Translations under genes and position numbers: made by a program
Part shown: positions 1 through 62,607 of the stretch, piece by piece
How positions within the stretch are numbered: position 1 is the stretch's first letter
Layout: every line of letters starts with the position of its first letter
Assembly: GCA_044224405.1 (NCBI GenBank)
Contig: JBGAKN010000001.1
Location: forward strand, 416,973-480,972
Length of the DNA: 64,000 nt
From: Tagaea sp.
Lineage (GTDB): Bacteria > Pseudomonadota > Alphaproteobacteria > CACIAM-22H2
Direction: 5' to 3'
Notes under the pieces: generated by a model
Told to the model about the DNA's origin: nothing
Database searches by the model: none
What the model saw: only the letters and a program-made list of their open reading frames with translations

Positions 1-534
1 AATCTTCTTGCCCTTGAGCGTGCCTTCCTTCGACTTGATGAACTGAAGGATCGCGTCCATCTGCGAATAGTAGGTGGCGGGCAGCGTGAACATCCACGGG
101 AAGATCCGGCCGTCCGAACCGTCCGAGCGGCCATAGCCCGAGGTGAGCATCGGGATCTTGTCCTGCGCGGTGCGCTCGATCAGGGCGTAGGTGATGCCGG
201 TCGACAGCGGCACGATGGCGGTGGCACCCGTCGGGCCCTTGCTCTTCAGACGCTCGTAGCACTCGACGCCGCGGTCGGTGTTGTAGGCCGTCTCGCACTC
301 TTCATAGGTGATCTTGACGCCGTTGATGCCGCCGTCGCGCGCGTTGATCATCTTGAAATAGTCGATGAAGCCGTCCGCGAAGGGCGTGCCGTTCGGCCCG
401 AACGGGCCGGTGCGGTACGAGAAGGACGGAATGAACTGTTCGTTGGCTTGCGCCAGTGCCGGGGCCGGAAGTGCCATCGGGGCTGCCAGGATGGCGGCGC
501 CGAGCAATGCGGACCCAAAGCGGATAAGGCTCAT
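1..534 (-). CDS. Branched-chain amino acid/aromatic acid-type ABC transporter substrate-binding protein (LivK-like), N-terminal part; gene continues beyond window start
   Basis: Reverse-strand translation from ATG at 532-534 gives MSLIRFGSALLGAAILAAP...signal peptide followed by a typical Leu/Ile/Val-binding-protein fold sequence (TGPFGPNG..GINGVKI..YEECET..); not in ORF track because truncated at window edge. Confidence 0.8.
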   Translation of the reverse strand, partial: MSLIRFGSALLGAAILAAPMALPAPALAQANEQFIPSFSYRTGPFGPNGTPFADGFIDYFKMINARDGGINGVKITYEECETAYNTDRGVECYERLKSKGPTGATAIVPLSTGITYALIERTAQDKIPMLTSGYGRSDGSDGRIFPWMFTLPATYYSQMDAILQFIKSKEGTLKGKKI

Positions 535-691
535 CGGGCATTCTCCCTGTTGACGTGACGTCTGTTGCCGGGGGGTCCCGGCTGGCCGTTTGCGGCCTTG
601 GGCAAGACCTTACGACAAGCCCGGTCCGCCGCCAAGGCCCGGAAATATCGCGGTGATTGGCCGGCGCGACCGGCAGGGTTATGCGTACATA

Positions 692-721
692 TTGACACAT
701 TCAAATTTATCGATGTATAGA
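692..721 (+). promoter_or_regulatory. Putative sigma70-type promoter of arsR (TTGACA-N18-TATAGA) ending about 6 nt before the arsR ATG; overlaps imperfect inverted repeats (ACATTCAAAT / TTATCGATGT) that could be the ArsR operator
   Basis: Hexamers read directly in the sequence; position relative to ATG 728 suggests a leaderless or very short-leader transcript. Confidence 0.35.
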
Positions 722-727
722 TCGACC

Positions 728-1036
728 ATGATCGAAATCTGCAAGGCGCTCGCCGATCCCGCCCGGCTCAAGATCCTCGAATTCCTGCGGCGGCCGGATT
801 CGCAGTGCTGCACGTTCGCCGACCGGGTCTGCGCGTGCGACATCGAGCCGCTGCTGGGCCTGTCGCAGCCGGCGACCAGCCATCACATGCGCATCCTCGT
901 GCGTGCGGGTCTGGTCACGTCCGAGAAGGACGGGCGCTTCATCTATTACCGCCTGAACGGCCCGGCCTTCGCCGAAGCCGTCGAATATCTCGGCCGTTTC
1001 GTGCGTGCGCCCCGCAAGGCGCAGCGCGTGGCCTGA
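728..1036 (+). CDS. arsR: ArsR/SmtB-family metalloregulator (As(III)-responsive repressor)
   Basis: HTH of ArsR family with the C-x-C metalloid-binding motif (RVCACDIEPLLGLSQPATSHHMRIL); adjacent to arsC/aqpS; internal ATG chosen because the longer ORF-track start would cover the promoter. Confidence 0.85.
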   Translation: MIEICKALADPARLKILEFLRRPDSQCCTFADRVCACDIEPLLGLSQPATSHHMRILVRAGLVTSEKDGRFIYYRLNGPAFAEAVEYLGRFVRAPRKAQRVA

Positions 1037-1058
1037 AACCCGAAAAAGGAGTCCGCAA

Positions 1059-2516
1059 ATGGAACAGCTTCCCGTCGCCGTGATCGGCGCAGGCCCCGTG
1101 GGCCTCGCCGCCGCCGCCCATCTCCTCGCGCGCGGCTTCACGCCCGTCGTGCTGGAGGCCGGCCCTTCGGCCGGGCACGTCGTGGCGCAATGGGCGCATG
1201 TGCACATGTTCTCGCCCTGGTCGTTCAACATCGACGCGGTGTCGCGCCGGCTTCTCGACAAGGCCGGATGGACGGCGCCGAAGGCGACGGATGTGCCGAC
1301 CGGCGGCGAACTCGTCGAGCAATACGTGAGGCCGCTGGCGGCGACGCCAGAGCTTGCGCCTCACATCGTCTATGGCGCGAAGGTCGAGGCGGTCGCGCGC
1401 GCGACGCGCGACAAGCTGCGCGATGACCGCGACGGCGATCCGTTCGTGCTGCGTTATCGCAAGGACGGCAAGTCCGTCTCGTTGCGCGCGCGCGCCGTCA
1501 TCGACGCGTCGGGAACCTGGTCGTCGCCCAATCCGCTCGGCGCCAACGGCCTCGCGGTCGACGGCGAAGGGCAGGTCGCACGCGCCATCGGCTATGGCAT
1601 TCCCGACGTCGGCGGCATCGACCGGCCGCTCTATGCCGGCAAGACCACGCTGGTGGTCGGCGGCGGCCACTCGGCGATCAATGCACTTCTCGACCTCGTC
1701 GCGCTGCGTGCGTCCGATCCGGGCACGCGCGTTCTGTGGGGAATCCGGCGCGCGAACCCGACACGCGCCATCGGCGGCGGTGCGGCCGACGCGCTGGCCG
1801 AACGCGGCGCGCTCGGCACGCGGCTGGAGGCGGCGCTTGCGGCCGGCGATATCGAACTGGTCACTTCCTTCGCGATCGACGCGCTTGCGCCGGTCGCGGG
1901 CGGGATCGCGGTCGCCGGGCGCACGGGCGCGTTCCCGATAAATTTCGTGGTCGACCGGATCGTCGCCGCGACGGGCTTCCGGCCCGATCTCGCGATGCTG
2001 CGCGAGGTGCGCGTCGACCTCGATGCGGCACTCGAATGCACGCCGGCGCTGGCGCCGCTGATCGACCCGAACATCCATTCGTGCGGCACGGTGCGCCCGC
2101 ACGGCGCGATCCAGCTCGCGCACCCGGAAAAGGATTTCTACATCGCCGGCATGAAGAGCTACGGCCGCGCGCCGACCTTCCTGCTCGCCACCGGTTACGA
2201 GCAGGTGCGCTCCATCGCGGCCGCGCTCGCGGGCGACATGGAAGCCGCCGCACGCGTCGAACTCGACCTGCCGCAGACAGGCGTCTGCTCGGTCACGGTG
2301 CGCGAAGCGGCGGTCGCGGAAGCCGGCTGCTGTGGCGGCCCGCCGGCACCCGTCGAAGCGGCACCATGCTGCTTCAAGGAGGTTCAGGTGAAGAGACCGG
2401 AACCCGTCGCGCAAGCCGGCTGTTGCGGGGGGCCTGCGCCCGCCGAAACCGATGCCTGCTGCGTCAAAGATGCCGAAGCGAAGGCGGCCGGCAAGTCCGG
2501 TTGCGGCTGCAGCTAG
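1059..2516 (+). CDS. FAD/NAD(P)-binding flavoprotein oxidoreductase (ArsO/CzcO-like) with C-terminal tail rich in vicinal cysteines
   Basis: Two Rossmann motifs (VAVIGAGPVGLAAA.., TTLVVGGGHSAINALLD); C-terminus contains GCCGGPPAP..PCCFKE and GCCGGPAPAE..ACCVKD repeats then GCGCS; RBS AAAGGA 8 nt upstream of ATG 1059; immediately downstream of arsR. Confidence 0.8.
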   Translation: MEQLPVAVIGAGPVGLAAAAHLLARGFTPVVLEAGPSAGHVVAQWAHVHMFSPWSFNIDAVSRRLLDKAGWTAPKATDVPTGGELVEQYVRPLAATPELAPHIVYGAKVEAVARATRDKLRDDRDGDPFVLRYRKDGKSVSLRARAVIDASGTWSSPNPLGANGLAVDGEGQVARAIGYGIPDVGGIDRPLYAGKTTLVVGGGHSAINALLDLVALRASDPGTRVLWGIRRANPTRAIGGGAADALAERGALGTRLEAALAAGDIELVTSFAIDALAPVAGGIAVAGRTGAFPINFVVDRIVAATGFRPDLAMLREVRVDLDAALECTPALAPLIDPNIHSCGTVRPHGAIQLAHPEKDFYIAGMKSYGRAPTFLLATGYEQVRSIAAALAGDMEAAARVELDLPQTGVCSVTVREAAVAEAGCCGGPPAPVEAAPCCFKEVQVKRPEPVAQAGCCGGPAPAETDACCVKDAEAKAAGKSGCGCS

Positions 2517-3171
2517 CGCAGCAGGCGGCGGGCAAGGACGGCCGCGACGGCTGCGCCCGCGCATTGCGCGACGATGAATCCCGGCGCATCGGCCGGCCGG
2601 ATGCCGGCGAAGCTATCGGTCAGCGCGCGCGCCAGCGTCACGGCCGGATTGGCGAAGCTGGTTGACGCGGTGAACCAGTAGGCGCCTGCGATATATCCGG
2701 CGACGGCGGCGGGCACGTTCGGCGCGCTGCGCTTCGAAGCAAGCAGCACGATCAGCAGAAGCCCGAAGGTCGCCACCGCCTCGGCGAACCATTGGGGCAA
2801 TCCGGCGCGGATTTTCGTGCCGGCCTGGAACAGCGCCACATCGAACATGCCGTGCGCCGCGAGCACGCCAAGCACGGCGCCGGCGATCTGCGCCAAGAAA
2901 TAGGGCAGCACGTCGGTGCGCGGCAGGTCGCCGCGCGCGGCCAGCGCCAGCGTGACCAGCGGATTGAAATGCGCGCCCGAAACAGGGCCGAGTGCCGCGA
3001 TCAGCGCGTAGAGCACGCCCGCGGTCGCGATCGCGTTGGCGAGCAAAGCGAGCGCGACGTTCCCGCCGGAAAGCCGCTCGGCCATGATGCCCGAGCCGAC
3101 GATCGCCGCCAGCAGCAGGGCGCTTCCCGCGGCTTCGGCAAAGATGCGTGCGGTCCGGTCGGCGGTCACGC
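2513..3171 (-). CDS. aqpS: Aquaglyceroporin (MIP family) of ars operons, arsenite channel AqpS-like
   Basis: Two NPA motifs (HFNPLVT, FANPAVT) and six TM segments; GTG start overlaps arsC stop (GTGA); the 396-aa ORF in the track is run-through in the same frame. Confidence 0.8.
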
Positions 3172-3672
3172 GGGTTCGGTCTTCCGGCCCATCTCGTCGA
3201 CCTTGCGCTTGATCTCGAGCGTCGTGAGCGATGCCATCGGCAGGCTCGCGAAGATGCGGATGCGCCGTTCGATCATGGCGAACACGTCGGCCGTGAAGGC
3301 GGCCTTTTCCGCATCCGTGCCTTCGAACGACGAGGGATCGGGAAAGCCCCAGTGCGCCGTGATCGGCTGGCCCGGCCAGACCGGGCAGACCTCGCCGGCC
3401 GCGTCGTCGCAGACCGTGAAGACGAAATCCATCACGGGCGCGCCGGGTCGCGCGAATTCGCCCCAATCCTTCGAGCGGAAGCCGGACGTGTCGAAGCCGA
3501 GCCGGTCGAGCAGCGATTTGACGGACGGATTGATCCGGCCCGACGGCTGGCTGCCAGCACTGTAGGCGCGGAAGCGCCCTTCGCCGTGCCGGTTCAGCAG
3601 CGCCTCGGCCATCACCGAACGCGCGGAATTGTGGGTGCAGAGAAACAGGACATTCTTGCGGGTATCGGTCAT
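3166..3672 (-). CDS. arsC: Arsenate reductase, LMW-PTPase/thioredoxin-coupled type
   Basis: CTHNSARS P-loop motif, 168 aa, typical ArsC of LMW phosphatase family. Confidence 0.9.
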   Translation of the reverse strand: MTDTRKNVLFLCTHNSARSVMAEALLNRHGEGRFRAYSAGSQPSGRINPSVKSLLDRLGFDTSGFRSKDWGEFARPGAPVMDFVFTVCDDAAGEVCPVWPGQPITAHWGFPDPSSFEGTDAEKAAFTADVFAMIERRIRIFASLPMASLTTLEIKRKVDEMGRKTEPA

Positions 3673-3732
3673 GACGCGGCCTGCGCTCGTGGAACGGGAT
3701 CAAGAATATGCGGCCATCGCGTTACAGTCATG

Positions 3733-4488
3733 TTACGCCGACGTCAGGCCCAGCACGGCAGCCGCGATGGCGCGCGGGCGCTCGCCGATGCCGGTCGCGA
3801 CGGCGCCGGCCTGCGGGTCGATTTCCAGAAGCTTTGTCCCGATGACGACGTCGACGCCGTCATGGACGAGGCCGCGGATCGTGCCCGCAAGCGGTGCCGC
3901 GATCGGCGCGCCATCGACCGTCGCGACCGGTGCGCCGGCAGCGACCTTGTCGCCGATGCGTGCGTTCGTGCGCAGCGTGCCCGAAACCGGCGAATAGACA
4001 AGCCGCTCGCGCCCGGCGCCGCCCAGCGGCTTCGGCTCGCCCGCAAGCGCCAATGTCGCCCCGTCGCGTACGATGCGGCCGAGATCGGTCCAGCTCGTCT
4101 CGACGGCGACGTGGCAGTTCCTCCAGGCGTCGAAGCCCGGCCCGAGGCCGATGGCGAGCGGCGCCTGCCCGCGCAGGTCTTCGGGTTCCGCGCGCTTGCG
4201 CAGGCGCGCATCGACCAGCATGTCGGGCCGGAAGGCGCCCCGCACGGCATCGTAGGGCAGGGACGTGGCGACAAGGCCTTCGCCGATACGCGCAAGATCG
4301 TCGGCGCGCCTGCACTCCAGCCCTTCGAGTGCCGCGCGCCCGTCGAACATCGCGTCGGCGAAGCTCATGCCGCGCCGGTGCGTGGTCGGGTGCGCGACGT
4401 CGTGGATCAGCACGATGTGCTCCGCCATGCGCAGCGCGTGGGCGACGGCCGAGCCGACATCGCCGATCCCGCGCACGAGGACGCGCAT
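3733..4488 (-). CDS. YqeB/EF2563-family protein (family normally associated with selenium-dependent molybdenum hydroxylase systems)
   Basis: MRVLVRGIGDVGSAVAHAL N-terminus, MSFADAMFDG, AIGLGPGFDA and VETSWTDLGRIV motifs resemble TIGR03309-type proteins; start codon 2 nt downstream of livM stop. Confidence 0.55.
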   Translation of the reverse strand: MRVLVRGIGDVGSAVAHALRMAEHIVLIHDVAHPTTHRRGMSFADAMFDGRAALEGLECRRADDLARIGEGLVATSLPYDAVRGAFRPDMLVDARLRKRAEPEDLRGQAPLAIGLGPGFDAWRNCHVAVETSWTDLGRIVRDGATLALAGEPKPLGGAGRERLVYSPVSGTLRTNARIGDKVAAGAPVATVDGAPIAAPLAGTIRGLVHDGVDVVIGTKLLEIDPQAGAVATGIGERPRAIAAAVLGLTSA

Positions 4489-4490
4489 CG

Positions 4491-5567
4491 TCAGTGCGGG
4501 AACGGCCAGAGCCGCAGCTTTTCCTTGCCGATCTGCCAGAGCCGCGCGAGGCCGTGCGGCTCGGCGATCAGGAAGAACACGATGAGCGCGCCGAAGATCA
4601 TCAGCTCGAAATGCGCGATCGTGGAGGTGGAGAGCGGCACGCCCATGGCCGTGGGCACCACGTTGAGGAAGATCGGCAGCAGCACGATGAACGCCGCCCC
4701 CAGGAACGAGCCGAGGATCGAGCCGAGCCCGCCGATGATGATCATGAACAGGATCTGGAACGAGCGGTTGATGTCGAAGGCGAGGGCCTCGACCGAGCTC
4801 GTGTAGATGAAGGCCCACAGCGCTCCCGCAACGCCGCAGTAGAACGACGAGACGGCGAAGGCGAGCAGCTTGGTGTGCAGCGGGCGGATGCCGATGATCT
4901 CGGCCGCGATGTCCATGTCGCGGATCGCCATCCACGCGCGCCCGATTCGCCCGCGTACGAGATTCTTTGCGACGAGCGCCAGCAGCGCCACGAACGAGAG
5001 GCAGAAAATGTACTTGGCGTGCGAGGTCGCCTCGATGCCGGTGACGTAGAAGCCGAAGACCGCACGCGGCGGTGCCGAGATGACGCCGGAGGCCGAATAG
5101 TTCACGAACCACGGCACCTTCGTGAACAGCCAGATCAGGAAGAACTGCGCGGCGAGCGTGGCGACCGCGAGGTAGAAGCCCTTGATGCGCAGGCTGGGGA
5201 TGCCGAACGCGACGCCGACGGCGGCCGTGACGCCGCCCGCCAGCAGGAACACGAACACGATGTTGAGTTCGGGGAACGCGATCGCGAGCTTGTAGGCCGC
5301 GAAGGCGCCGCACGCCATGAAGCCGCCCGTACCCAGGCTGAGCTGCCCGCAATAGCCGGTCAGGATGTTGAGGCCGAGGGCGGCGACCGAAAAGACGAGG
5401 AACGGGATCAGGATCGTCGACAGGAAATAGTCGCTCGCCACCATCGGCGCGCCGACGAACGCGACGAGCAGCAGCAGCGCCAGCGCGATCCGGTCCTGCA
5501 GGATCGGGAAGATCGCCTGGTCTGCGGCATAGCTCGTCTTGTACTGGCCGGCCTCGCGGTAGATCAC
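4491..5567 (-). CDS. Branched-chain amino acid-type ABC transporter permease (LivM-like)
   Basis: 358 aa polytopic membrane protein with LivM-type sequence. Confidence 0.85.
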   Translation of the reverse strand: MIYREAGQYKTSYAADQAIFPILQDRIALALLLLVAFVGAPMVASDYFLSTILIPFLVFSVAALGLNILTGYCGQLSLGTGGFMACGAFAAYKLAIAFPELNIVFVFLLAGGVTAAVGVAFGIPSLRIKGFYLAVATLAAQFFLIWLFTKVPWFVNYSASGVISAPPRAVFGFYVTGIEATSHAKYIFCLSFVALLALVAKNLVRGRIGRAWMAIRDMDIAAEIIGIRPLHTKLLAFAVSSFYCGVAGALWAFIYTSSVEALAFDINRSFQILFMIIIGGLGSILGSFLGAAFIVLLPIFLNVVPTAMGVPLSTSTIAHFELMIFGALIVFFLIAEPHGLARLWQIGKEKLRLWPFPH

Positions 5568-5571
5568 GTCG

Positions 5572-6507
5572 TCACACCCTCTCGATGATGCGTTCGCCGA
5601 ACAGGCCCTGCGGGCGGAACATCAGGAAGAACAGCGCGAGGATATAGGCGAACCAATCCTCGATGCCGCCGCCGATCTTCGCGGCCCAGAATACCTCCGC
5701 GACCTTCTCGCCCACGCCGATGATGAGGCCGCCGATGATGGCGCCGGGGATCGACGTGAAGCCGCCGAGGATCAGCACGGGCAGCGCCTTCAGCGCGACC
5801 AGCGCCAGCGAGAACTGCACGCCGAGCTTCGAGCCCCACATGATGCCCGCGACCAGCGCCACGATGCCGGCGACCGACCAGACGATCACCCAGATCGTCT
5901 GCAGCGGGATGCCGACCGACTGCGCAGCCTGATGGTCGTCGGCCACCGCGCGCAGCGCCCGCCCGATGCGGGTCGACTGGAAGAAGAAGGCGAGCGTGGC
6001 GACGAGCGTGCCGGCCACGAGAGCCGCGACGATGTCGAACGTGTTGACCAGCACGCCGCCGATCTCGATCGGGTCCTTCGGGATGCCGACATCGAGGCGC
6101 TTCACGTCCTCGCCCCACAGCATCTGGAAGAAGCCGTCGATGAAGAAGGTCACGCCGATCGTCGCCATGAACAGGATGATCGCCGGCTGGTTGACGAGCG
6201 GGCGCAGCACGACGCGCTCGATCGCGAAGGCGAGCGCGATCATGGTGGCAAGCGCCAGCAGCAAGGCGAGCCACTGGGGCGCCCCCAGTTCGTTGAAGCC
6301 CACGAACGAGAGGGCCGCGCTCAGCACCATCGCCCCTTGCGCGAAATTGAACACGCCCGAGGCCTTGAAGATCAGCACGAAGCCCAGCGCCACGAGGCTG
6401 TACATGACGCCCGTCAGCAGGCCGCCGACCAGCACCTCGACGAAGAAGGTCGGGAATTCCCAGATCTCCTTGAGCGGGCCGAAGAGGAAGTCGAGGAGGA
6501 AATCCAT
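5572..6507 (-). CDS. Branched-chain amino acid-type ABC transporter permease (LivH-like)
   Basis: 311 aa, typical LivH sequence (..GGLIIGVGEKVAEVFW..). Confidence 0.85.
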   Translation of the reverse strand: MDFLLDFLFGPLKEIWEFPTFFVEVLVGGLLTGVMYSLVALGFVLIFKASGVFNFAQGAMVLSAALSFVGFNELGAPQWLALLLALATMIALAFAIERVVLRPLVNQPAIILFMATIGVTFFIDGFFQMLWGEDVKRLDVGIPKDPIEIGGVLVNTFDIVAALVAGTLVATLAFFFQSTRIGRALRAVADDHQAAQSVGIPLQTIWVIVWSVAGIVALVAGIMWGSKLGVQFSLALVALKALPVLILGGFTSIPGAIIGGLIIGVGEKVAEVFWAAKIGGGIEDWFAYILALFFLMFRPQGLFGERIIERV

Positions 6508-6518
6508 CTAGCGGCGCC

Positions 6519-7319
6519 TCATGCGTGGCTCGTGCCGAGATAGGCGTCGATGACCTTGGGGTCCGCCTTCACCGTGTCGGGCGTGCCGTCGGCGATCTTG
6601 CGGCCGTATTCGAGCACGACCACGCGGTCGGAGATGTCCATCACCACGCCCATGTCGTGCTCGATCAGCGCGATCGTCGTGCCGAACTGCTCGTTGACGT
6701 CGAGGATGAAGCGGCACATGTCCTCCTTCTCCTCGAGATTCATGCCGGCCATCGGCTCGTCGAGCAGCAGCAGTTCTGGCTCGGCGGCGAGCGCGCGACC
6801 CAGTTCCACGCGCTTCTGCAGGCCATAGGGCAGGCGGCCGACAGGCGTTTTCCGGATCGCCTGGATTTCCAGAAAGTCGATGACGCGCTCGACGACCTCG
6901 CGGTGCGCGATCTCCTCCTTCTGCGCCGGCCCCCAGTGCAGGCACTGCCAGAAGAAGCCGCGCTTCATCTTGAGCATGCGCCCGGTCATGATGTTGTCGA
7001 GCGTCGACATGCCGCGGAACAGCGCGATGTTCTGGAAGGTGCGTGCGATGCCGTTCTTGGCCGCTTCGTGCGGGCGCATGGCGCCGCGCGCCAGACCCTT
7101 GTAAGTGATGCGCCCTTCGCTCGGATGATAAAAGCCGTTGATGCAGTTCAGCATCGACGACTTGCCGGCACCGTTGGGCCCGATGATCGCGCGGATCTCG
7201 CCCTTGCGGATGTCGAACGAGACGTCGCTGAGCGCACGTACGCCGCCGAAGCCGAGGCTGACGTTCTCGACCTCCAGCAGCGTGCCCCCGATTTCCCGCG
7301 CGACGGCCGGACGCGACAT
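6519..7319 (-). CDS. ABC transporter ATP-binding protein (LivG-like)
   Basis: Walker A GPNGAGKSS, signature and Walker B LLLLDEP; ATG 7317-7319, 2 nt after ligase stop; the 687-aa ORF in the track is antisense run-through. Confidence 0.9.
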   Translation of the reverse strand: MSRPAVAREIGGTLLEVENVSLGFGGVRALSDVSFDIRKGEIRAIIGPNGAGKSSMLNCINGFYHPSEGRITYKGLARGAMRPHEAAKNGIARTFQNIALFRGMSTLDNIMTGRMLKMKRGFFWQCLHWGPAQKEEIAHREVVERVIDFLEIQAIRKTPVGRLPYGLQKRVELGRALAAEPELLLLDEPMAGMNLEEKEDMCRFILDVNEQFGTTIALIEHDMGVVMDISDRVVVLEYGRKIADGTPDTVKADPKVIDAYLGTSHA

Positions 7320-7321
7320 GC

Positions 7322-9298
7322 CTAGCTCGCCCGCCGCAGTTCGGGTTTTGCCGATGCGGGCACGCGCGCCGCCTCGCGGATGGCGAGATCGGCCTCGATC
7401 TTGCCCTTGCGGCCGTCCTCGAAGGTGACGACCGTGGAGATGTGCGCGCGCTCGGCGCCCGAATAGAGTGCCTCGACGAGCGGGCCGTAGCGGTCGGCGA
7501 TGAAGCCGCGGCGCACCTTGCGCGTGCGCGTGAGCTCGCCGTCGTCGGCGTCGAGTTCCTTGTGGAGCACGAGGAAGCGGCGGATCTGCGAGCCGGCAAG
7601 TGCGGGATCGTCGGCGAGGTCGCGGTTCACCTTCTCGACGCATTCCTGCACGAGGGCGAGGATCTCGGGCTTGGCGGCAAGTTCCTGATAGGAGGCGTAC
7701 GCGATGCCGCGCCGCTCGGCCCAATTGCCGGCCGCCTCGAGGTCGATATTGACGAAGCAGGCGACGTGCTCCTGCCCGTGGCCGAAGGCGACGGCTTCCT
7801 TGATGAAGCTGAAGAACTTGAGCTTGTTCTCGACATATTTGGGCGCGAACAGCGTGCCGTCGCGCAATTTGCCGACGTCCTTCGCGCGGTCGATGATCTT
7901 GAGCTGGCCCGACTTGTCGAAATAGCCGGCATCGCCCGTGCGGTAATAGCCGTCGGGCGTCTTGGCCGAGGCGGTCGCCGCGTCGTTCTTGTAGTAGCTC
8001 TGGAAGATGCCGGGCGAGCGCACGAGCACCTCGCCACTCTCCTCGATTCGGATCTCGACTTCCGGCGCCGGCACGCCGACCGTGTCGGAGCGGATCTCGC
8101 CGTCCTTCTGCATGCAGATGAAGACGGAGGTTTCGGTGGCGCCGTAGAGCTGCTTCAGGTTCAGCCCGAGCGAGCGGTAGAAATCGAAGATGTCGGGACC
8201 GATCGCCTCGCCGGCAGTGTAGCCGATGCGCATCTTGGCGAAACCCAGCGCGTTCTTGAGCGGCCCATACACCAGCCGTTCGCCCAGCGCGTAGAGGAAA
8301 CGGTCGGCGAGCGAGACGGGTTCCTTGTCCATCAGCGCGATGCCGGTGCGCCGCGCGATATCCATGAAATAGCGGAACATGGCGCGCTTGATCGTGCCGG
8401 CATCCTCCATGCGGATGGCGACCTGCGTCAGGATGTTCTCGAAGATGCGCGGGGGCGCGAAGAAGAAGCTCGGCCCGATCTCCTTCAGGTCCGTCATCAC
8501 CGTGGCGCCCGATTCCGGGCAGCTCACGCAGAAGCCGGCGACGTAGGCTTCGGCGTACGAGAAGATGTGATCGCCCACCCACGCCATCGGCAGATAGGCG
8601 AGGATCTCGTCGTCCTCGCGCAGGCCGTCGAAGGCGATGGCGTTCTCCGCCGTTCGGATGACGTTGTCGTAGGTGAGCAGCACGCCCTTGGGCTGGCCGG
8701 TCGTGCCCGACGTGTAGAGCATGACGGAGGCATCCGCGCCCTTGCCCCTGGCGATCTCGGCATCGAGGAAAGCGGGATTGGCGGCCGCGTGCGCGTCGCC
8801 CGCCTGCATCAGCGCGTCGATGGCGAGCAGGCCTTCGTCGGCATAGGTGCGCATGCCGCGCGTGTCGTCATAGGCGATGATCTTCGGCAGGCCGGTGCGC
8901 GCGCGGATGCCCAGCAGCTTGTCGACCTGCTCCTGGTCCTCGGCGATGGCCACGCGCGCCTCGGCGTGGTCGATCACGTAGGCCATCTCGTCGGCGACCG
9001 CGTCCTGATAGACCGGCACGGGGACGGCACCCAGGCACTGCGCGGCGCAGATCGACCAGTAGAGGCGCGGGCGGTTGTCGCCCACCAGCACCAGCTTGTC
9101 GCCGCGCTTCACGCCAAGGCTGGCAAGGCCGCTCGCGATGCGCCGGATTTCCGCCGCACTCTGGGCCCATGACCAGCTCTGCCAGATGCCCAGTTCCTTC
9201 TCGCGCATCGCCGGCCGGTCGCCCCGCACGCGCGCGTTGTGCCCCAGCAGCTTGGGGAACGTGTCGAGCGACGGATTGCGGGCGGGAAGCTGGGTCAT
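7322..9298 (-). CDS. AMP-dependent synthetase/ligase (acyl- or aryl-CoA ligase) heading the ABC uptake operon
   Basis: AMP-binding motifs YTSGTTGQPKGV and GYTAGE..; start chosen at MTQLP ATG (9296-9298); an upstream ATG at 9335-9337 is an alternative. Confidence 0.8.
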   Translation of the reverse strand: MTQLPARNPSLDTFPKLLGHNARVRGDRPAMREKELGIWQSWSWAQSAAEIRRIASGLASLGVKRGDKLVLVGDNRPRLYWSICAAQCLGAVPVPVYQDAVADEMAYVIDHAEARVAIAEDQEQVDKLLGIRARTGLPKIIAYDDTRGMRTYADEGLLAIDALMQAGDAHAAANPAFLDAEIARGKGADASVMLYTSGTTGQPKGVLLTYDNVIRTAENAIAFDGLREDDEILAYLPMAWVGDHIFSYAEAYVAGFCVSCPESGATVMTDLKEIGPSFFFAPPRIFENILTQVAIRMEDAGTIKRAMFRYFMDIARRTGIALMDKEPVSLADRFLYALGERLVYGPLKNALGFAKMRIGYTAGEAIGPDIFDFYRSLGLNLKQLYGATETSVFICMQKDGEIRSDTVGVPAPEVEIRIEESGEVLVRSPGIFQSYYKNDAATASAKTPDGYYRTGDAGYFDKSGQLKIIDRAKDVGKLRDGTLFAPKYVENKLKFFSFIKEAVAFGHGQEHVACFVNIDLEAAGNWAERRGIAYASYQELAAKPEILALVQECVEKVNRDLADDPALAGSQIRRFLVLHKELDADDGELTRTRKVRRGFIADRYGPLVEALYSGAERAHISTVVTFEDGRKGKIEADLAIREAARVPASAKPELRRAS

Positions 9299-9455
9299 GG
9301 ACGAAATAACGGTGTCTCCCTGTACGATCGGACCCATACGGACGAACCAGTAAGATCCGGCACGTTCCCCTTCCGGTGGCCGCGCTGACGGTTGTAGAAC
9401 CCGTCATTCGCGGCAGGGATGCCTGCCTCGGTCCACTTAAGTCGAAAGGCCGAAC

Positions 9456-10226
9456 TTGGTCAAGCAAAGCACGCCGTTCTTCGTGGCCCTGGGCGGGCGC
9501 AAGCTGCACGCGGTCCGCATTGACGGGCCGGAGGCGCCGCCGCTCGTGTTCCTGCACGAAGGGCTCGGCTCGATTCCCCAGTGGCGCGACTTTCCCGTCG
9601 CCCTGTGCGCGGCCGCGGCGCGCCCCGGCCTCGTCTACGAACGCTTCGGCCACGGCAAGTCGTCGCCGATGGCAGGGCCGCGTACCGTGGGCTATCTGCA
9701 CGACGAGGCGACGACGCTGCTCGCCATCCTCGACGCGCTCTCGATCCCGAGGGCCGATCTCGTCGGCCATTCCGACGGCGGATCGATCGCGCTGCTGGCG
9801 GCGGCGCGGGCACCTTCGCGCATCGGGCGGCTGGCCACGATCGCGGCGCACGTGCTGGTCGAGGACGTGACGATCGCCGGCATCCGGGCGGCCCAGCTCA
9901 CCTATGCGGGCACCGACCTGCGCGAACGGCTCGCGCGCTATCATGGCGAGGGGACCGACGCGCTGTTCCGCGCGTGGGCCGACACGTGGCTGTCGGCGCC
10001 GTTCCGCGACTGGAACATCGAGAAGGAGCTGCGCCTGCTGACCTCGCCCGTGCTGGCCCTGCAGGGCGAGGGCGACGAATACGGCACGCTCGACCAGCTC
10101 CAGCGCATCAAGGCGGCGGTCGGTGGCCCGTGCGTGACGTGGGCGGTGCCCAAGACCGCGCACCATCCCCACCTGCAGGCGCGCGCCGAAGTGCTCGACC
10201 GGCTGGCGGCGTTCTTCCGGGTCTAG
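9456..10226 (+). CDS. Alpha/beta-fold hydrolase
   Basis: GHSDGG nucleophile elbow, C-terminal conserved His, about 256 aa; TTG start with GAAAGG RBS. Confidence 0.75.
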
Positions 10227-10251
10227 GCGGGGCGGGTCCAGGCGCCCGGGG

Positions 10252-12816
<2,565 letters not shown>

Positions 12817-13026
12817 ATCCTTTCGGCAGGCAAACGCCCCCGATTTGGGCCCCAATATGCTCCGGCGACGGTTAACAAGTGTTTGACGCGCAACCGCTTC
12901 CGCCGGGGGCGCAGGGCCCGGCCGCCGGGCGCGCCTTCCCCCGGCAGCACTTCAATGAAAAGGGCGGGCGTGCTATCCAGTGGGCCGCCTTTTCTTTTGC
13001 ATCAGGGATATAGGGGAGATCTGCCC

Positions 13027-15717
<2,691 letters not shown>

Positions 15718-47938: not shown

Positions 47939-49006
47939 TCAAGCCTCGTCGAAATCGAGCACGACTTCCGCGCTGACGGGGCGCGACTGGCAGGCGAGCA
48001 CGAAGCCTTTTTCCAGTTCCCACGCTTCCAGCGAATAGTTCGCCGCCATCACGACATCGCCCGCGCGCTTCAGGCACCGGCAGGTCGAGCACACGCCGCC
48101 CTTGCAGCTGAACGGCAGTTCGAGCCCCGCCGCGATGCCCGCATCGAGGATGCTGGGGCCGTCGAAAGGAACCTCGACGACCTGCCGGATGCCGTCGCGC
48201 ACGACCGTGACGCGCGCGTTGGCGCCGTGCCGCGCCGGCGCTGCAACCGGCGCCGGAGCGGGAACGTCTGGTGCGAGGAACAGCTCGCTGTGGATGCGCG
48301 CGGCCGGCACGCCGAGCCCCGCGAGGGCGGCCTTCACGGTCTCGACCATCGCGAACGGGCCGCAGAGATAGAACCCGGTAACGGACGCAGGTTCGAACAG
48401 CGCCTTCGCCAGCGCCCTGATCTTGTCCGCGTCGATGCGGCCGTCGAGCAGGGCCGTGTCCTGCCTTTCGCGGCTGAGCACATGGACGAGCGACAGCCGC
48501 GTCATGTGGCGGTTCTTGAGGTCTTCGAGATCCTCGCGGAAGATGATCGAATCGATCGTGCGGTTCGCGTAGACGAGCACGACACGCGACGCGGGCTCGC
48601 GTTCCAGCACCGACCTTGCGATCGAGATCACCGGCGTGATGCCGCTGCCCGCCGCGACCAGCACGATGTCGCGCCGCACGGCCGGATCGGGGATCAGCCC
48701 GAAACGCCCTTCGGGCGTGCCGACCTCGATCCGGTCGCCATGCTTCAGCCGCGCGTTGGCAAACGACGAGAACGCACCGCCCTCCACGCGCTTGACCGCG
48801 ACGCGCAGCTCGCCCTCGTGCGGGGCCGAGCAGATCGAGTAGGAGCGGCGCAGTTCCTTCCCGCCGACCATCGCCTTCATCACCAGATACTGGCCGGGCG
48901 AGAAGCGGTAGGCCTCGGCGAGCGCGGCCGGAACGCGGAAGGCGATCGATACGCAGTCGGGCGTTTCGCGGCGGACGTCTTCGATCTCGAGGGAATGGAA
49001 CGCCAT
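47939..49006 (-). CDS. paaE: 1,2-phenylacetyl-CoA epoxidase reductase subunit (ferredoxin-NADP reductase type with plant-type [2Fe-2S])
   Basis: RxYS FAD motif (RRSYSICS), NAD-binding GSGITP, C-terminal CxxGxCxxC..C. Confidence 0.85.
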   Translation of the reverse strand: MAFHSLEIEDVRRETPDCVSIAFRVPAALAEAYRFSPGQYLVMKAMVGGKELRRSYSICSAPHEGELRVAVKRVEGGAFSSFANARLKHGDRIEVGTPEGRFGLIPDPAVRRDIVLVAAGSGITPVISIARSVLEREPASRVVLVYANRTIDSIIFREDLEDLKNRHMTRLSLVHVLSRERQDTALLDGRIDADKIRALAKALFEPASVTGFYLCGPFAMVETVKAALAGLGVPAARIHSELFLAPDVPAPAPVAAPARHGANARVTVVRDGIRQVVEVPFDGPSILDAGIAAGLELPFSCKGGVCSTCRCLKRAGDVVMAANYSLEAWELEKGFVLACQSRPVSAEVVLDFDEA

Positions 49007-49518
49007 CAGATGCACTTGAAATATTCGAAGGGCTCGGCGCATGCGTTGCAGGCATGGAAAGCCTTGCACGCGGTCGAGCCGAACTCGCTGGTCTTGCGCG
49101 TATCGCCGGATCCGCAGCGCGGGCAGGCAACGGAAGGCTCCGGCGCGAACATCGCGGCCTGCAGGGCCGACGCCTTGCCGGCCGGGGGCGCGATGCCGTA
49201 GCTGCGCAGCTTCTCGCGCGCGGCGGGGCCGATCCAGTCGCTCGTCCAGGCAGGCGCATTGACGAGCGCGATTTCGGGGCGCCCCAGTCCCGCCGCCTCG
49301 ATCGCCGTCTCGACATCGATGCGGATCGCGGCGGTGGCGGGGCAGCCGGTATAGGTCGGCGTCAGGTCGATCGCGAGGCGGCCCGCTTCAGCGCGCACCG
49401 CGCGCACGATGCCGAGATCGACGACCGACAGCACCGGCACCTCCGGGTCCATGACCGTACCGAGCACGGCCCAGGCGCGCGCGACGCGCGGATCTTCGGT
49501 GCTCGCGACGCTCACCAT
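49006..49518 (-). CDS. paaD: Phenylacetate-CoA oxygenase subunit PaaD (DUF59/Fe-S assembly-like)
   Basis: C-terminal CPRCGS..C..CNAC cluster, 170 aa; stop overlaps paaE start (ATGA). Confidence 0.8.
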   Translation of the reverse strand: MVSVASTEDPRVARAWAVLGTVMDPEVPVLSVVDLGIVRAVRAEAGRLAIDLTPTYTGCPATAAIRIDVETAIEAAGLGRPEIALVNAPAWTSDWIGPAAREKLRSYGIAPPAGKASALQAAMFAPEPSVACPRCGSGDTRKTSEFGSTACKAFHACNACAEPFEYFKCI

Positions 49519-50267
49519 TTCGCACCCGGATAGGCGCGGGGCAGGAACTGCATCGTCGCCAGCAGATGGCCGAGCGCCTCGCCGTGCTGGCCCTTGAACC
49601 CGCCGGTCTGCATCCAGCCGGACGCGGGCTTCGCCAGCGTGGCCTCGGCCAGCACGCCGTCCACCGTGCGCACCCAAGCGGCGCGGATCGGCGCCATGTC
49701 GGGCGCGATGCGCGCGTCGGCCAGCGAACGCGCGGTCGCGTCCGTCTCGAACATCTCGCCGGTGAAGGGCCAGAACTGGTCGAGGGCGGCCTGCGCGCGC
49801 GCATGGCTCTCGTCCGTGCCGTCGCCGAGCCGGATCACCCATTCGCCGGAATGGCGCAGGTGATAGCGCGCTTCCTTCACGCCCTTGGCGGCGATACCCG
49901 CGACTTCGGCATCCGCCGAATCCGCAAGGCCGGCATAAAGCTCCGCCTGCCAGGCATCGAACAGGAACTGGCGCACAAGCGTGTGCGCGAAATCGCCGTT
50001 CGGCCGCTCGCAGAGCAGCAGGTTGCGATAGTCGGCCGCATCGCGCAGGAAGGCGAGCGCGTCGGCATCCCGCCCCTTGTTCTCGACGCGCGCGGCATAT
50101 CCGAGCAGCGCTTCGGCCTGCCCGGTCAGGTCGAGGGCGACGTTGGCGAGCGCGATGTCGGATTCGAGTTCGGGCGCGTGGCCGCACCATTCGGATACGC
50201 GATGTCCGAGCACGAGGCAGGAATCCCCGAGCCGCAGCAGATATTCGAAAAGGGCATCGCGGTCCAT
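49512..50267 (-). CDS. paaC: 1,2-phenylacetyl-CoA epoxidase subunit C
   Basis: 251 aa ferritin-like PaaC sequence; position between paaB and paaD. Confidence 0.85.
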   Translation of the reverse strand: MDRDALFEYLLRLGDSCLVLGHRVSEWCGHAPELESDIALANVALDLTGQAEALLGYAARVENKGRDADALAFLRDAADYRNLLLCERPNGDFAHTLVRQFLFDAWQAELYAGLADSADAEVAGIAAKGVKEARYHLRHSGEWVIRLGDGTDESHARAQAALDQFWPFTGEMFETDATARSLADARIAPDMAPIRAAWVRTVDGVLAEATLAKPASGWMQTGGFKGQHGEALGHLLATMQFLPRAYPGAKW

Positions 50268-50268
50268 G

Positions 50269-50568
50269 TCAGATGTTCTTCACGTCCGGCGGGATCTCGT
50301 AGAAGGTCGGGTGGCGATAGACCTTCGAGACCATCGGCTCGAAATTGCTGTCTTTCAGCGCCGGGTCGGACGCGACGATGTCGCGCGAGGGAACGACCCA
50401 GACGCTGACGCCCTCGGCGCGCCGGCAATAGACGTCGCGCGCCAGTTCGACCGCCATCGCCCCGTCGATCGCGTGCAGCGAGCCGACATGGCGGTGCGCA
50501 AGCCCGTTGCGCGAACGCACGAAGACTTCGTAGAGCGGCCAGTCGGCTTTTTCGGTTGCGCCTGTCAT
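50269..50568 (-). CDS. paaB: 1,2-phenylacetyl-CoA epoxidase subunit B
   Basis: 99 aa, highly conserved PaaB sequence (WPLYEVFVRSR..VWVVP); RBS GGAG. Confidence 0.9.
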   Translation of the reverse strand: MTGATEKADWPLYEVFVRSRNGLAHRHVGSLHAIDGAMAVELARDVYCRRAEGVSVWVVPSRDIVASDPALKDSNFEPMVSKVYRHPTFYEIPPDVKNI

Positions 50569-50573
50569 GTCTT

Positions 50574-51569
50574 TCACTCCGCCGCGCGCGCGGCAAGACG
50601 GGCCGCACGCTTGCGGCCGTGGGCGATGGCGGCCTCGCGCACCCAGGCGCCCTCTTCGTGCGCCTTGCGACGCGCGGCGAGTCGTTCGCGATTGCACGGG
50701 CCGTCGCCCGCGACGACGCGGTTGAACTCGGCCCAGTCGATGGGCCCGTAGTTCCAGTGGCCGCTCGCTTCGTCGAGCTTCAGGTCCGGATCGGGGAAGG
50801 TGAGGCCGAGGAAATGGCCCTGTGGCACCGTGACGTCGACGAATTTCTGGCGCAGGTCGTCGTTCGACACGCGCTTGATCTTCCACGCGGCGTTCTGCGA
50901 GGAGTGGATCGAATCCTTGTCGGACGGGCCGAACATCATCAAGGCCGGCCACCACCAGCGGTCCAGCGCGGACTGCGCCATGCGCTTCTGCTCGGGCGTG
51001 CCCTGCGCCAGCTTCAGCATCAGCTCGTATCCCTGGCGCTGGTGGAAGCTCTCCTCGCGGCAGATGCGCACCATCGCGCGCGCGTAGGGGCCGTAGGAGC
51101 AGCGGCACAGCGGCACCTGGTTCATGATCGCGGCCCCGTCGACCAGCCAGCCGATGGCGCCGATATCGGCCCAGGTCAGCGTGGGATAGTTGAAGATCGA
51201 CGAGTACTTGGCCTTGCCGGCGAGCAGCTGGTCGACCAGCTCGGCGCGCGGCACGCCCAGCGTCTCGGCCGCCGAATATAGATAGAGGCCGTGGCCGCCC
51301 TCGTCCTGCACCTTGGCGAGCAGGATCATCTTGCGCCGCAGGCTGGGCGCGCGCGTGATCCAGTTGCCCTCGGGCAGCATGCCGACGATTTCGGAATGCG
51401 CGTGCTGCGAGATCTGGCGCACGAGCGTGCGCCGGTAGCCCTGCGGCATCCAGTCGTTCGGCTCGATCTTCTCCTCGCGGTCGATGCGCGCCTGGAAGGC
51501 GGCAAGTGCTGCTGGATCGTCGGTTGCCGCCGGCACCGGTGCGCGCTGGTCGAGGCCTTGCGTGTACAT
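50574..51569 (-). CDS. paaA: 1,2-phenylacetyl-CoA epoxidase catalytic subunit A
   Basis: Di-iron ferritin-like oxygenase with PaaA signatures (..QDEGGHG.., ..EESFHQ..). Confidence 0.9.
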
Positions 51570-61078: not shown

Positions 61079-61152
61079 TGGAGCGGGTGAAGGGAATCGA
61101 ACCCTCGTATGCAGCTTGGGAAGCTGCCGTTCTACCATTGAACTACACCCGC
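61079..61152 (-). tRNA. tRNA-Gly (anticodon CCC)
   Basis: Reverse complement GCGGGTGTAGTTCAATGGTAGAACGGCAGCTTCCCAAGCTGCATACGAGGGTTCGATTCCCTTCACCCGCTCCA folds as a cloverleaf with anticodon loop TTCCCAA and encoded CCA. Confidence 0.85.
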
Positions 61153-61300: not shown

Positions 61301-61330
61301 TCGGAGCGTTTCGCGAGCGCATGCCCGCCG

Positions 61331-61360
61331 AACAGCCCCGGACCAAGAGGCCGGGGTTTT
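61331..61360 (+). terminator. Terminator-like hairpin (CCCCGG-ACCAAGAGG-CCGGGG-UUUUU) between riboswitch and metZ start; possible expression platform
   Basis: Read directly; lies inside the longer ORF-track frame, so the downstream ATG 61378 start is preferred. Confidence 0.45.
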
Positions 61361-61377
61361 TGATTCGGGGTAACGCG

Positions 61378-62607
61378 ATGGCAAAGAAAAACGAGTTTTC
61401 GACCGATCCGGCCTGGCGGGCGGGCACGGCCCTTGTGCATGGCGGCACCGAGCGTTCGCAATGGTCGGAGACCGGCGAGGCGATGTTCCTGACGTCGGGC
61501 TTCGTCTATGGCTCGGCCGGCGAGGCCGAACGCGCCTTTGCGACGCCGACCAAGCTCGAGGATCAGCGCTTCGTCTATTCGCGCTTCGGCAACCCGACGG
61601 TCGCGATGTTCGAGGCGCGGCTCGCCGCACTCGAAGGTGCCGAAGCCTGCAAGGGCACGGCCAGTGGCATGGCCGCGGTGTTCGCGGCGCTCGCCTGCCA
61701 GCTCAAGTCGGGCATGCGCGTCGTTTCGGCCCGCGCGCTGTTCGGCTCGTGCCACTACATCGTCACCGAGCTGCTGCCGCGCTGGGGCATCGAGACCGTG
61801 CTGGTCGATGGCCCGGATCTAAGCGCATGGAAGAAGGCGCTGTCGGTCAAGACCGACGTCGTGTTCCTCGAATCGCCGTCCAACCCGATGCTCGACCTCG
61901 TCGACATAAAGGGCGTCGCGAAGCTCGCGAAGAAGGCGGGCGCCAAGGTCGTCGTCGACAACGTGTTCGCCACGCCGCTTCTTCAGAAGCCGCTGGAGCT
62001 GGGTGCCGACGTCGTCGTCTATTCGGCGACCAAGCACATCGACGGGCAGGGGCGCGTGCTCGGCGGCGCCGTGCTGGGTTCGCGCGCGTGGATCGAGGGC
62101 ACGTTCGTGCCGTTCATCCGCCACACGGGCCCGACGCTGTCGGCGTTCAATGCATGGGTGCTGCTGAAGGGGCTCGAGACGTTGCCGCTGCGCGTCGCGG
62201 CGCATTCGCGCAACGCTCTCGCCGTCGCAAAGCATCTCGAGAAGGCGCGCGCCGTGGCGCGCGTGCTCTATCCCGGGCTCAAGTCGCATCCCCAGCATGC
62301 GCTGGCGCGCCGGCAGATGAAGGACGGCGGCCCGCTCGTCGCCTTCGATCTCAAGGGCGGCAAGAAGGCGGCCTTCGCGTTCGTCGATGCGCTCAAGCTC
62401 ATCCGCATTTCCAACAATCTCGGCGATGCCAAGAGCCTGATCTGCCATCCCGCGACCACGACCCATCAGCGCCTGCCGGCCGACGAGAAGGCCCGCCTGC
62501 GCATCGGGCCGGGCAGCCTGCGGCTGTCGGTGGGGATCGAGGACACGGCCGATCTCGTCGAGGATCTGGCCCGCGGTCTCGCGGCTGCCGCGAAGGCCAC
62601 GCGCTAG
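61378..62607 (+). CDS. metZ: O-succinylhomoserine sulfhydrylase / cystathionine gamma-synthase family PLP enzyme
   Basis: PLP-lysine block (..SATKHIDGQGR..), full-length homology to MetZ. Confidence 0.85.
   Translation: MAKKNEFSTDPAWRAGTALVHGGTERSQWSETGEAMFLTSGFVYGSAGEAERAFATPTKLEDQRFVYSRFGNPTVAMFEARLAALEGAEACKGTASGMAAVFAALACQLKSGMRVVSARALFGSCHYIVTELLPRWGIETVLVDGPDLSAWKKALSVKTDVVFLESPSNPMLDLVDIKGVAKLAKKAGAKVVVDNVFATPLLQKPLELGADVVVYSATKHIDGQGRVLGGAVLGSRAWIEGTFVPFIRHTGPTLSAFNAWVLLKGLETLPLRVAAHSRNALAVAKHLEKARAVARVLYPGLKSHPQHALARRQMKDGGPLVAFDLKGGKKAAFAFVDALKLIRISNNLGDAKSLICHPATTTHQRLPADEKARLRIGPGSLRLSVGIEDTADLVEDLARGLAAAAKATR

Follow-up and report, generated by a model that had tools for sequence, protein, structure and literature searches.

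In the arsR-aqpS-arsC-arsH operon of Sinorhizobium meliloti, said to have been described by Yang et al. in 2005, ArsC reportedly reduces arsenate and the aquaglyceroporin releases arsenite. YqeB, the family modelled by TIGR03309 and including E. coli b2875 and C. difficile yqeB, is an accessory protein of selenium-dependent molybdenum hydroxylases (PMC2276186, PMC11448449), and according to Haft and Self a sister group scoring below the threshold of the model comes largely from species lacking selD (PMC2276186). ArsV is a flavin monooxygenase acting on methylarsenite, roxarsone(III) and antimonite (bioRxiv 10.1101/2021.08.12.456183). Relatives of the first two, and a flavoprotein that may be ArsV-like, are encoded in a 64,000-nt stretch of contig JBGAKN010000001.1 (Tagaea sp., positions 416,973 to 480,972; below, the window), where a yqeB-like gene and a block of arsenic-resistance (ars) genes lie inside an operon for a Liv-type ABC importer and acyl-coenzyme A (CoA) ligases. 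Our reading, to which we give a probability of roughly 80%, is that one uncultured alphaproteobacterial lineage carries two unrelated additions, the yqeB-like gene and the ars block, in the spacer that separates livM from the binding-protein gene, and that the backbone operon serves uptake and CoA activation of an organic acid.

On the minus strand of the window an AMP ligase gene is followed by livG, livH, livM, the yqeB-like gene, arsC, aqpS and then a truncated binding-protein gene; arsR and a flavoprotein gene lie on the plus strand, convergent toward aqpS-arsC. ORF (open reading frame) listing, translation and profile searches put each of the genes named in an earlier sequence-only reading of this DNA within a few bases of where that reading had placed it. 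The operon has the composition of a Liv-type (HAAT) importer: the window encodes the ligase, LivG, LivH, LivM and the beginning of the binding protein, and in L084, the syntenic relative closest to it, LivF and a PaaK-like ligase complete the set (L and P numbers are our designations for loci of relatives). An ORF and profile scan agreed with the earlier observation that the window has no LivF. The suggestion to look just outside the window was followed, and LivF was found past its left edge in relatives, together with a 414-aa PaaK-like ligase; in L084 LivF (209.5 bits, best match) and then this ligase stand behind the binding-protein gene.

Megablast against plasmids found matches to the liv and ligase genes on plasmids of Aminobacter and Methylibium, whose annotation gives, in this order, AMP-binding protein (~657 aa), ATPase, permease, permease, binding protein, ATPase, AMP-binding protein (~412 aa). 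The backbone is a widely conserved seven-gene operon encoding a FadD-like ligase, LivG, LivH, LivM, the binding protein, LivF and a PaaK-like ligase. When species-representative genomes were scanned with LivM, a large sample and not a census, at least 80 loci with 62-77% identity were obtained, the listed ones spanning Alpha-, Beta-, Gamma- and Deltaproteobacteria as well as other phyla, and the window proteins were mapped onto them by tblastn. The binding-protein gene started 11-227 nt (median 91) past livM in 76 of the 80 loci listed; in three of the other four the contig ends too early, and one had no binding-protein match. No yqeB or ars gene stood between livM and the binding-protein gene among the 80. 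Since the binding-protein gene is directly behind livM in the 76 loci, the window therefore carries approximately 4 kb of extra DNA. These counts bear out the claim that the binding protein is parted from its permeases by about 4 kb, and together with the plasmid order they support insertion into a transporter operon, one of the two explanations that the sequence-only reading had offered.

Two further loci with the same type of operon were observed. In an Amylibacter metagenome-assembled genome (MAG) the binding-protein gene is split by ~2.2 kb of DNA (L079, 11195-13901), another interruption near this junction, and in a Burkholderiales MAG an arsR-arsC-aqpS cluster, 49-58% identical to that of the window, lies ~4 kb downstream of the operon and not inside it (L065, 17223-19162). 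The window itself has paaE-, paaC- and paaA-like phenylacetyl-CoA oxygenase genes at 47939-51569, ~40 kb from the operon. Along with the PaaK-like ligase that ends the operon in relatives, they hint at phenylacetate-like acids as the importer substrate.

Homologues of the yqeB-like protein with 71-86% identity form a tight group, all of them from metagenomes or MAGs labelled Proteobacteria or Rhodospirillales. Five of the loci (L084, L085, L086, L088 and L093) keep the gene order of the window, ars genes included. On one side they share with the window a flank of aconitase, PAS histidine kinase and alpha/beta hydrolase genes; on the other the five continue with the binding protein, LivF, the PaaK-like ligase and ccmABCDE. 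They are collinear with the window at 81-90% DNA identity (L084 at 88.6-90.5% over window bases 2-14474), liv proteins are 85-99% identical among the loci, and the synonymous divergence (dS) of the liv genes is 0.19-0.40. As the same order and flanks are kept across five MAG loci, the arrangement is therefore inherited within the clade and not recent. Conservation of the order in distant relatives had been named in the sequence-only reading as what would speak for an ancestral arrangement; the order was conserved within the clade but not beyond it among the loci scanned. The sphingomonad origin assumed there found no support, the syntenic relatives being uncultured MAGs with the labels given above.

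The yqeB-like gene starts 2-10 nt behind livM in every member of the clade, and it also occurs apart from the ars genes. In three related contigs (L095, L096 and the contig bearing P0020) livM, yqeB and the binding-protein gene stand without ars genes. The P0020 contig, of 38.9 kb, encodes a permease, a YqeB of 254 aa that is 71% identical to that of the window, the binding protein, LivF, the PaaK-like ligase and ccm proteins. L095 and L096 lack any counterpart of window bases 557-3754. In a multiple alignment nearly the whole yqeB-to-binding-protein spacer of the ars-less loci aligned with window bases 535-660, and homology at the 3' end of yqeB stopped a few codons short of the stop codon. 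The ars block thus measures ~3.1-3.2 kb and lies between the yqeB 3' end and an intact binding-protein leader of ~125 nt. Of the earlier proposal of a single ars cassette inserted into the operon, the insertion stands and the single cassette does not, yqeB being separable from the ars genes in three contigs.

Among the relatives the ars block is present in five, absent from three and replaced by a divergent version in one, L094. The L094 module (3074-7563) consists of arsR, a frameshifted arsC, an MIP channel gene, an ArsK-like MFS transporter gene (195.7 bits, below the cut-off of 400), a flavoprotein gene and a second arsR, at the same site; identity to the window is 52% for its MIP and 54% for its flavoprotein, compared with 91% for LivM. 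In L088 (10799-11155) and L093 (10790-11146) a further arsR stands between yqeB and arsC, its product bearing a CC..C motif at the C-terminus. A stretch resembling theirs, ATATT(C/T)T..GA, persists upstream of the window arsC and may be a leftover of the promoter region of this extra arsR. The variation in L088, L093 and L094 therefore indicates that the site behind yqeB saw gain, replacement or loss more than once.

Gain in two successive steps, in an order that we infer, has one serious competitor. If yqeB and the ars genes had arrived as a single island, the ars-less lineage must have lost the ars genes by deletion between yqeB and the leader, and the number of events would be the same. In a neighbour-joining tree of YqeB the L095, L096 and P0020 copies are nested among those of ars-bearing loci, as a single island would predict. 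The dS of yqeB, arsC and aqpS (2513-4488) is 0.45-0.8, about twice the 0.19-0.40 that the same pairs of genomes show for the liv and ligase genes (4491-9337), and the three genes share this elevation. It may reflect weaker codon bias or recombinational exchange, the former suggested by a GC content at third codon positions (GC3) of 0.85-0.88 in the inserted genes compared with 0.94-0.95 in livM and livH. A tree of the binding-protein N-terminus, however, sets the ars-less lineage outside the tight ars-bearing clade (84-86% versus 93-98% identity), and the ars-less spacer is continuous, aligning end to end with the leader with no ars remnant. Furthermore, no yqeB homologue outside the clade stood beside ars genes in the contexts scanned, and in L094 the ars module was replaced independently of yqeB. 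We therefore regard a single island as doubtful, if far from negligible.

With a start 2-10 nt past the livM stop, yqeB is probably co-transcribed and translationally coupled with livM. In the window the yqeB ATG lies 2 nt past the TGA stop of livM, and an 8-nt deletion at this junction, shared with L084 (window 4486-4493, L084 9996-10003), leaves TGA-CG-ATG. The deletion removes AGG(G) Shine-Dalgarno-like bases that are kept in six other loci, and the window yqeB probably relies on coupling to livM for its translation. With no terminator-like site before arsC, arsC-aqpS may in turn be read through from the liv promoter; transcription from there, from a leftover promoter behind yqeB or from both appears probable.

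Upstream of arsR, TTGACA (692-697) and TATAGA (716-721) are separated by an 18-nt spacer, the second hexamer lying 6 nt before the ATG, and an imperfect 20-bp palindrome, ACATTCAAATTTATCGATGT, lies between them. All five syntenic loci with ars genes conserve the block ATACATCGATAGATTTGAATGTGTCAAT, which ars-less loci lack. Bases 661-727 would thus act as promoter and operator of arsR. The binding-protein leader contains TTGGCG (635-630), a 17-nt spacer, TAAGGT (612-607) and a GGGAG Shine-Dalgarno sequence, with two small hairpins at 584-597 and 567-582 (fold z = -2.8). When it was aligned across the five syntenic ars loci, the divergent L094 and two ars-less loci, TTG, TAA.GT and stem bases were invariant. 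One hairpin has a compensatory change, and one stem shows C-G to U-A and U-G changes across the eight loci. The livM/binding-protein spacers of distant genomes were too divergent for alignment with the leader of this lineage. These elements suggest that the leader works as a promoter, and the binding protein, LivF and the second ligase would then retain a promoter-like leader of their own. A pre-existing internal promoter of this kind would explain why their separation from livM was tolerated.

The yqeB-like product matches TIGR03309 over protein residues 3-246 and model positions 1-250 of 256 (E = 4e-51), with 173.8 bits where the equivalog cut-off is 220. Its clade and more distant relatives, nine of which were scored, reached 160-206 bits, all below that cut-off. 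E. coli YqeB, which has in addition an XdhC-like N-terminal half, gave 417 bits over residues 271-526, and by BLASTP the window protein was 35% identical to its residues 271-520 (E = 1e-37). The YqeB-family label given in the sequence-only reading thus holds for full-length homology to the model but not for its cut-off. On this profile evidence the window protein is a member of the sub-threshold, non-selenium sister group of TIGR03309. The same reading had noted that the family normally stands beside selenium-dependent molybdenum hydroxylases and that none is present: the first applies to true TIGR03309 members and not to this sister group, and the second was confirmed in the scanned window ORFs. 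With this placement, the missing hydroxylase is therefore not an anomaly. No molybdenum hydroxylase locus was found near the yqeB-like gene in the scanned window ORFs or in the 20-kb loci of the five syntenic relatives, and neither molybdenum hydroxylase, XdhC nor selD was found among 30 further window ORFs (Pfam scan) or in the operon region.

Relatives of the protein at 43-57% identity are encoded in varied contexts. One lies by MoeA (L089), one is fused to a nitrate-reductase-associated domain (L090), one stands by a LysR-type regulator followed by modABC (L097), and one by an xanthine dehydrogenase (XDH)-family molybdenum-binding large subunit (L098). Three occur with FdhA/NuoG-like and NuoF-like genes together with tungstate- or molybdate-type transporter genes (L103, L104 and L106). 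In L092 the neighbour is a split thiamine pyrophosphate enzyme with no molybdenum link. An AlphaFold model of the window protein (pLDDT, the predicted local confidence, 95) has a Rossmann-like N-terminal and a barrel-sandwich hybrid C-terminal domain. Foldseek against the PDB gave domain-level matches only, to biotinyl/barrel-sandwich and AstE-type C-terminal domains (TM, the fold-similarity score, at most 0.31), and a profile search of PDB sequences returned only Rossmann and biotinyl-domain fragments, with no solved structure matching the whole fold. The gene is intact and under purifying selection within the clade, with a ratio of nonsynonymous to synonymous divergence (dN/dS) of 0.16-0.37.

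We read the yqeB-like gene, from these homologies and contexts, as a likely accessory gene for molybdenum or tungsten cofactor, which came to lie behind livM and would be expressed with it. It could instead have been co-opted as a working part of the operon, in a role unrelated to the molybdenum cofactor. Its constant position 2-10 nt behind livM and the purifying selection would fit that, as would the lack of a molybdoenzyme within ~10 kb in the syntenic loci or among the scanned ORFs of the window, and some distant relatives also lie within ABC-transporter gene clusters. However, the protein diverges much faster than its neighbours (69-88% versus 85-99% identity), and all other lineages among the loci listed have the operon without yqeB. 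Seven of the relative contexts described above are tied to molybdenum or tungsten, while L092 and others show no such tie, and the invariant residues of the wider family are retained. Co-option is therefore unlikely. We give equally little credence to a broader version, in which the sister-family member has a working role in the importer and ligase operon and the site behind it is a recurrent landing site for ars modules. If the first half of it were true, the protein might mature a molybdenum or tungsten enzyme acting on the imported compound, or act independently of molybdenum; if the second, ars modules would be gained, swapped and lost by recombination between conserved flanks.

The features of the ars block fit a conventional arsenic-resistance module. 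ArsR combines the ArsR/SmtB fold, at the level of sequence, with an As(III)-type cysteine cluster in the DNA-binding region (a CC...CxC motif with C27, C28, C35 and C37, in QCC...VCACD). ArsC has the C12-X5-R18 loop and C88 and C95, as in thioredoxin-coupled reductases of the low-molecular-weight protein tyrosine phosphatase (LMW-PTP) type, and is 57% identical to an annotated ArsC encoded beside an MIP gene in Nitrobacter. The MIP channel has NPL and NPA motifs and shares 51% identity with the MIP of the Nitrobacter ars island. It adjoins arsC, and no ArsB or Acr3 pump gene was found in 1-10300, the arrangement of AqpS-type modules. The flavoprotein ends in a cysteine-rich tail, CCGGP..CC..GCGCS, and homologues with 48-50% identity and the same tail stand behind arsR in two plasmid-borne ars islands, on Nitrobacter hamburgensis plasmid 2 and on a Bosea plasmid. 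In the window a 93-bp tandem duplication in the tail (2313-2352 / 2406-2445) gives two CCGGP..CC units; the protein has 485 aa compared with 455-463 aa in the syntenic relatives, and collinear alignment breaks at the duplication.

By analogy with the AqpS pathway, ArsC most likely reduces arsenate to arsenite, which would leave the cell down its gradient through the MIP channel. ArsR would keep its own arsR-flavoprotein unit repressed as long as no As(III) is bound to its cysteines, and the cysteine-tailed flavoprotein, which by context may be ArsV-like, probably acts on trivalent arsenic or antimony species, by oxidation or in some other way.

The other explanation offered in the sequence-only reading was a composite locus for uptake and activation of organo-acids or organo-arsenicals. 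In its strongest form the importer and ligases would take up and activate an organo-arsenical or related acid, with the ars and YqeB proteins processing it as one functional unit. Behind livM the genes yqeB, arsC and aqpS do point the same way and are closely spaced, with no terminator-like site; at least five related genomes preserve the arrangement, and arsR is divergent from the binding-protein gene, where ArsR could in principle affect both promoters. Against this, 76 of the 80 loci listed have the operon without these genes, other loci have it with yqeB alone, and the same ars gene set occurs in plasmid islands without Liv genes. The ars block is moreover variable and in L094 partly decayed, and the putative arsR operator and putative binding-protein promoter are ~57 nt apart and do not overlap. 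With each module occurring on its own elsewhere, the composite locus was not borne out, and we consider a single functional unit very improbable.

An assembly chimera, which the evidently metagenome-type assembly and an exact match no longer than 1.2 kb might suggest, has next to no likelihood, since that match, a Logan contig from an independent sequencing run and the only hit in an exact look-up of the window YqeB protein, spans the livM, yqeB and arsC junctions at 100% identity and the same junctions occur in five further assemblies from different samples.

Several observations count against the reading of two unrelated additions to a conserved operon, or against parts of it. The YqeB tree, which is unbootstrapped, contradicts the binding-protein tree in nesting the ars-less copies among the ars-bearing ones. 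No target-site duplication, terminal repeat, integrase or transposase was found around the insert, the repeats there being chance-level GC-rich matches. A consensus scan of 400-4700 called no promoter or terminator; the arsR promoter was missed because its -10 hexamer ends in A. The arsC product scored 64 bits on TIGR02691, below the cut-off of 174, and the flavoprotein matched no curated ars model above threshold, with 45.3 bits on ArsO (NF040505) where the cut-off is 425. Finally, other lineages may have inserts at this site beyond the at least 80 loci scanned.

The features of the operon and insert are collected in Table 1. The binding-protein N-terminus is 94-98% identical to its counterparts in L084, L085, L088 and L093. 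The FadD-like ligase has 671 aa from the first ATG and 658 aa from the ATG at 9298; the 658-aa form is that of the relatives and agrees with the end proposed in the sequence-only reading. The arsC and aqpS genes overlap by 4 nt, the GTG start of aqpS lying over the arsC stop, and the aqpS and flavoprotein genes overlap by 4 nt tail to tail.

Table 1. Coordinates of the operon, the insert and their putative control regions in the window
Feature	Coordinates	Strand	Basis
Binding protein, N-terminal 178 codons	534-1	minus	Pfam Peripla_BP_6, 86 bits; truncated at window edge
Binding-protein leader	535-660	minus	alignment of relatives
arsR promoter/operator region (putative)	661-727	plus	read from sequence
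arsR, 102 aa	728-1036	plus	Pfam HTH_5, 48 bits; NCBIfam HTH_metalloreg NF033788, 87.5 bits (cut-off 55)
FAD/NAD(P)-binding flavoprotein (pyridine-nucleotide-disulfide type), 485 aa	1059-2516	plus	Pfam Pyr_redox_3, Pyr_redox_2
aqpS-like MIP channel, 218 aa, GTG start	3169-2513	minus	Pfam MIP, 82 bits
arsC, LMW-PTP type, 168 aa	3672-3166	minus	Pfam LMWPc, 57 bits, above threshold
yqeB-like gene, 251 aa, stand-alone	4488-3733	minus	TIGR03309, 173.8 bits (cut-off 220)
livM-type permease	5567-4491	minus	Pfam BPD_transp_2, 105 bits
livH-type permease	6507-5572	minus	Pfam BPD_transp_2, 109 bits
livG-type ABC ATPase	7319-6519	minus	Pfam ABC_tran, BCA_ABC_TP_C; best NCBIfam match LivG, 244 bits
FadD-like AMP-dependent acyl-CoA ligase	9337 or 9298 to 7322	minus	Pfam AMP-binding, 220 bits

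A comparison of GC content and codon usage between the inserted genes and their flanks, which the sequence-only reading had proposed, was carried out and did not discriminate a foreign origin. GC was 0.66-0.73 in the inserted genes and 0.65-0.72 in the liv and other flanking genes; GC3 was 0.85-0.88 and 0.90-0.95 respectively, with 0.88 in the native binding-protein gene, and there was no sharp boundary. Very long wrong-strand ORFs arise in this high-GC DNA, as at 10357-15717 (plus) and 12973-15669 (minus). The minus-strand ORF 12973-15669 is an antisense shadow of the aconitase gene (plus strand, ending at 15717), and it is conserved in relatives because the aconitase gene is. Rfam at gathering and E-value thresholds gave no match in 1-10300. 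Elsewhere in the window there are a tRNA gene (61082-61152, minus strand) and an alphaproteobacterial S-adenosylmethionine (SAM) riboswitch (RF00521, 61237-61316, 71 bits) directly upstream of the gene for a pyridoxal phosphate (PLP) enzyme of Cys/Met metabolism (61321-62607), in favour of an alphaproteobacterial origin of the DNA.

The locus offers a clean natural example of an operon that tolerates insertions at an internal boundary already holding a promoter-like leader, and of ars modules that act as exchangeable units at one fixed place in the chromosome without visible mobility genes. It also corrects an annotation trap, in that such proteins are labelled YqeB, or selenium-dependent or xanthine dehydrogenase accessory factor, yet score below the threshold of the family. 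More distant members of the sister group adjoin molybdate or tungstate transporter genes and formate-dehydrogenase-type and XDH-type genes, and no selenium link was seen. A sister family with no characterised member or solved structure is the most rewarding part of the locus and its sole element with real potential for discovery. The arsenic part is conventional. The insertion reading was right in outline and is here refined to a nested, two-part insert of sufficient age for a clade to share it, with the YqeB puzzle dissolved by the sister-group placement.

Bases 142438-150931 of Aminobacter aminovorans pAA01 carry the same genes as the window operon in the same order and orientation, with protein identities of 54-79%. 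In contrast to pAA01, the window operon is split behind livM by ~4 kb, and its binding-protein gene is divergent from arsR. Compared with E. coli-type YqeB, the window protein has no XdhC-like N-terminal half, and compared with TIGR03309 loci the window has no nearby molybdenum hydroxylase, yqeC, mocA or selD.

For the ars genes there are counterparts in plasmid islands. On Nitrobacter hamburgensis X14 plasmid 2 (NC_007960.1, ~75.1-80.9 kb) arsC-MIP-arsC-arsH is divergent from arsR-flavoprotein-MFS, beside arsenite oxidase; Bosea sp. F3-2 plasmid pB32-2 has arsR-flavoprotein-MFS-arsH-arsR-arsC-acr3 beside Tn-like genes. The Nitrobacter island has homologues of all four window ars genes (ArsC 57%, MIP 51% and flavoprotein 48% identical), and in both it and the window arsR is directly 5' of the flavoprotein gene, whose product has the same CCGGP..CC..GCGCS tail. 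The gene pairs are divergent in Nitrobacter but convergent in the window. The Nitrobacter and Bosea islands add an MFS transporter, arsH and a glutaredoxin-type arsC or acr3, and lie on plasmids near arsenite oxidase or Tn-like genes; the window module, unlike these surroundings, has no mobility genes. In relatives an ArsK-like MFS transporter gene lies behind the flavoprotein gene. Like the window protein, ArsV is an NAD(P)H/FAD-type flavoprotein encoded directly behind an arsenic-responsive repressor in ars islands. ArsO, the closest curated model, is matched only far below threshold.

The S. meliloti operon and the window share an arsC adjoining an MIP channel gene, with ArsR nearby and no ArsB or Acr3 pump, and in the window arsC and aqpS overlap. 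The window differs from S. meliloti in having no arsH, in pairing arsR with a cysteine-tailed flavoprotein gene on the opposite strand, and in carrying the module inside another operon; its arsC-aqpS has no arsR of its own, whereas those of L088 and L093 do. The locus is ordinary genome mosaicism, put together from known kinds of parts, and not a new arsenic-uptake system.

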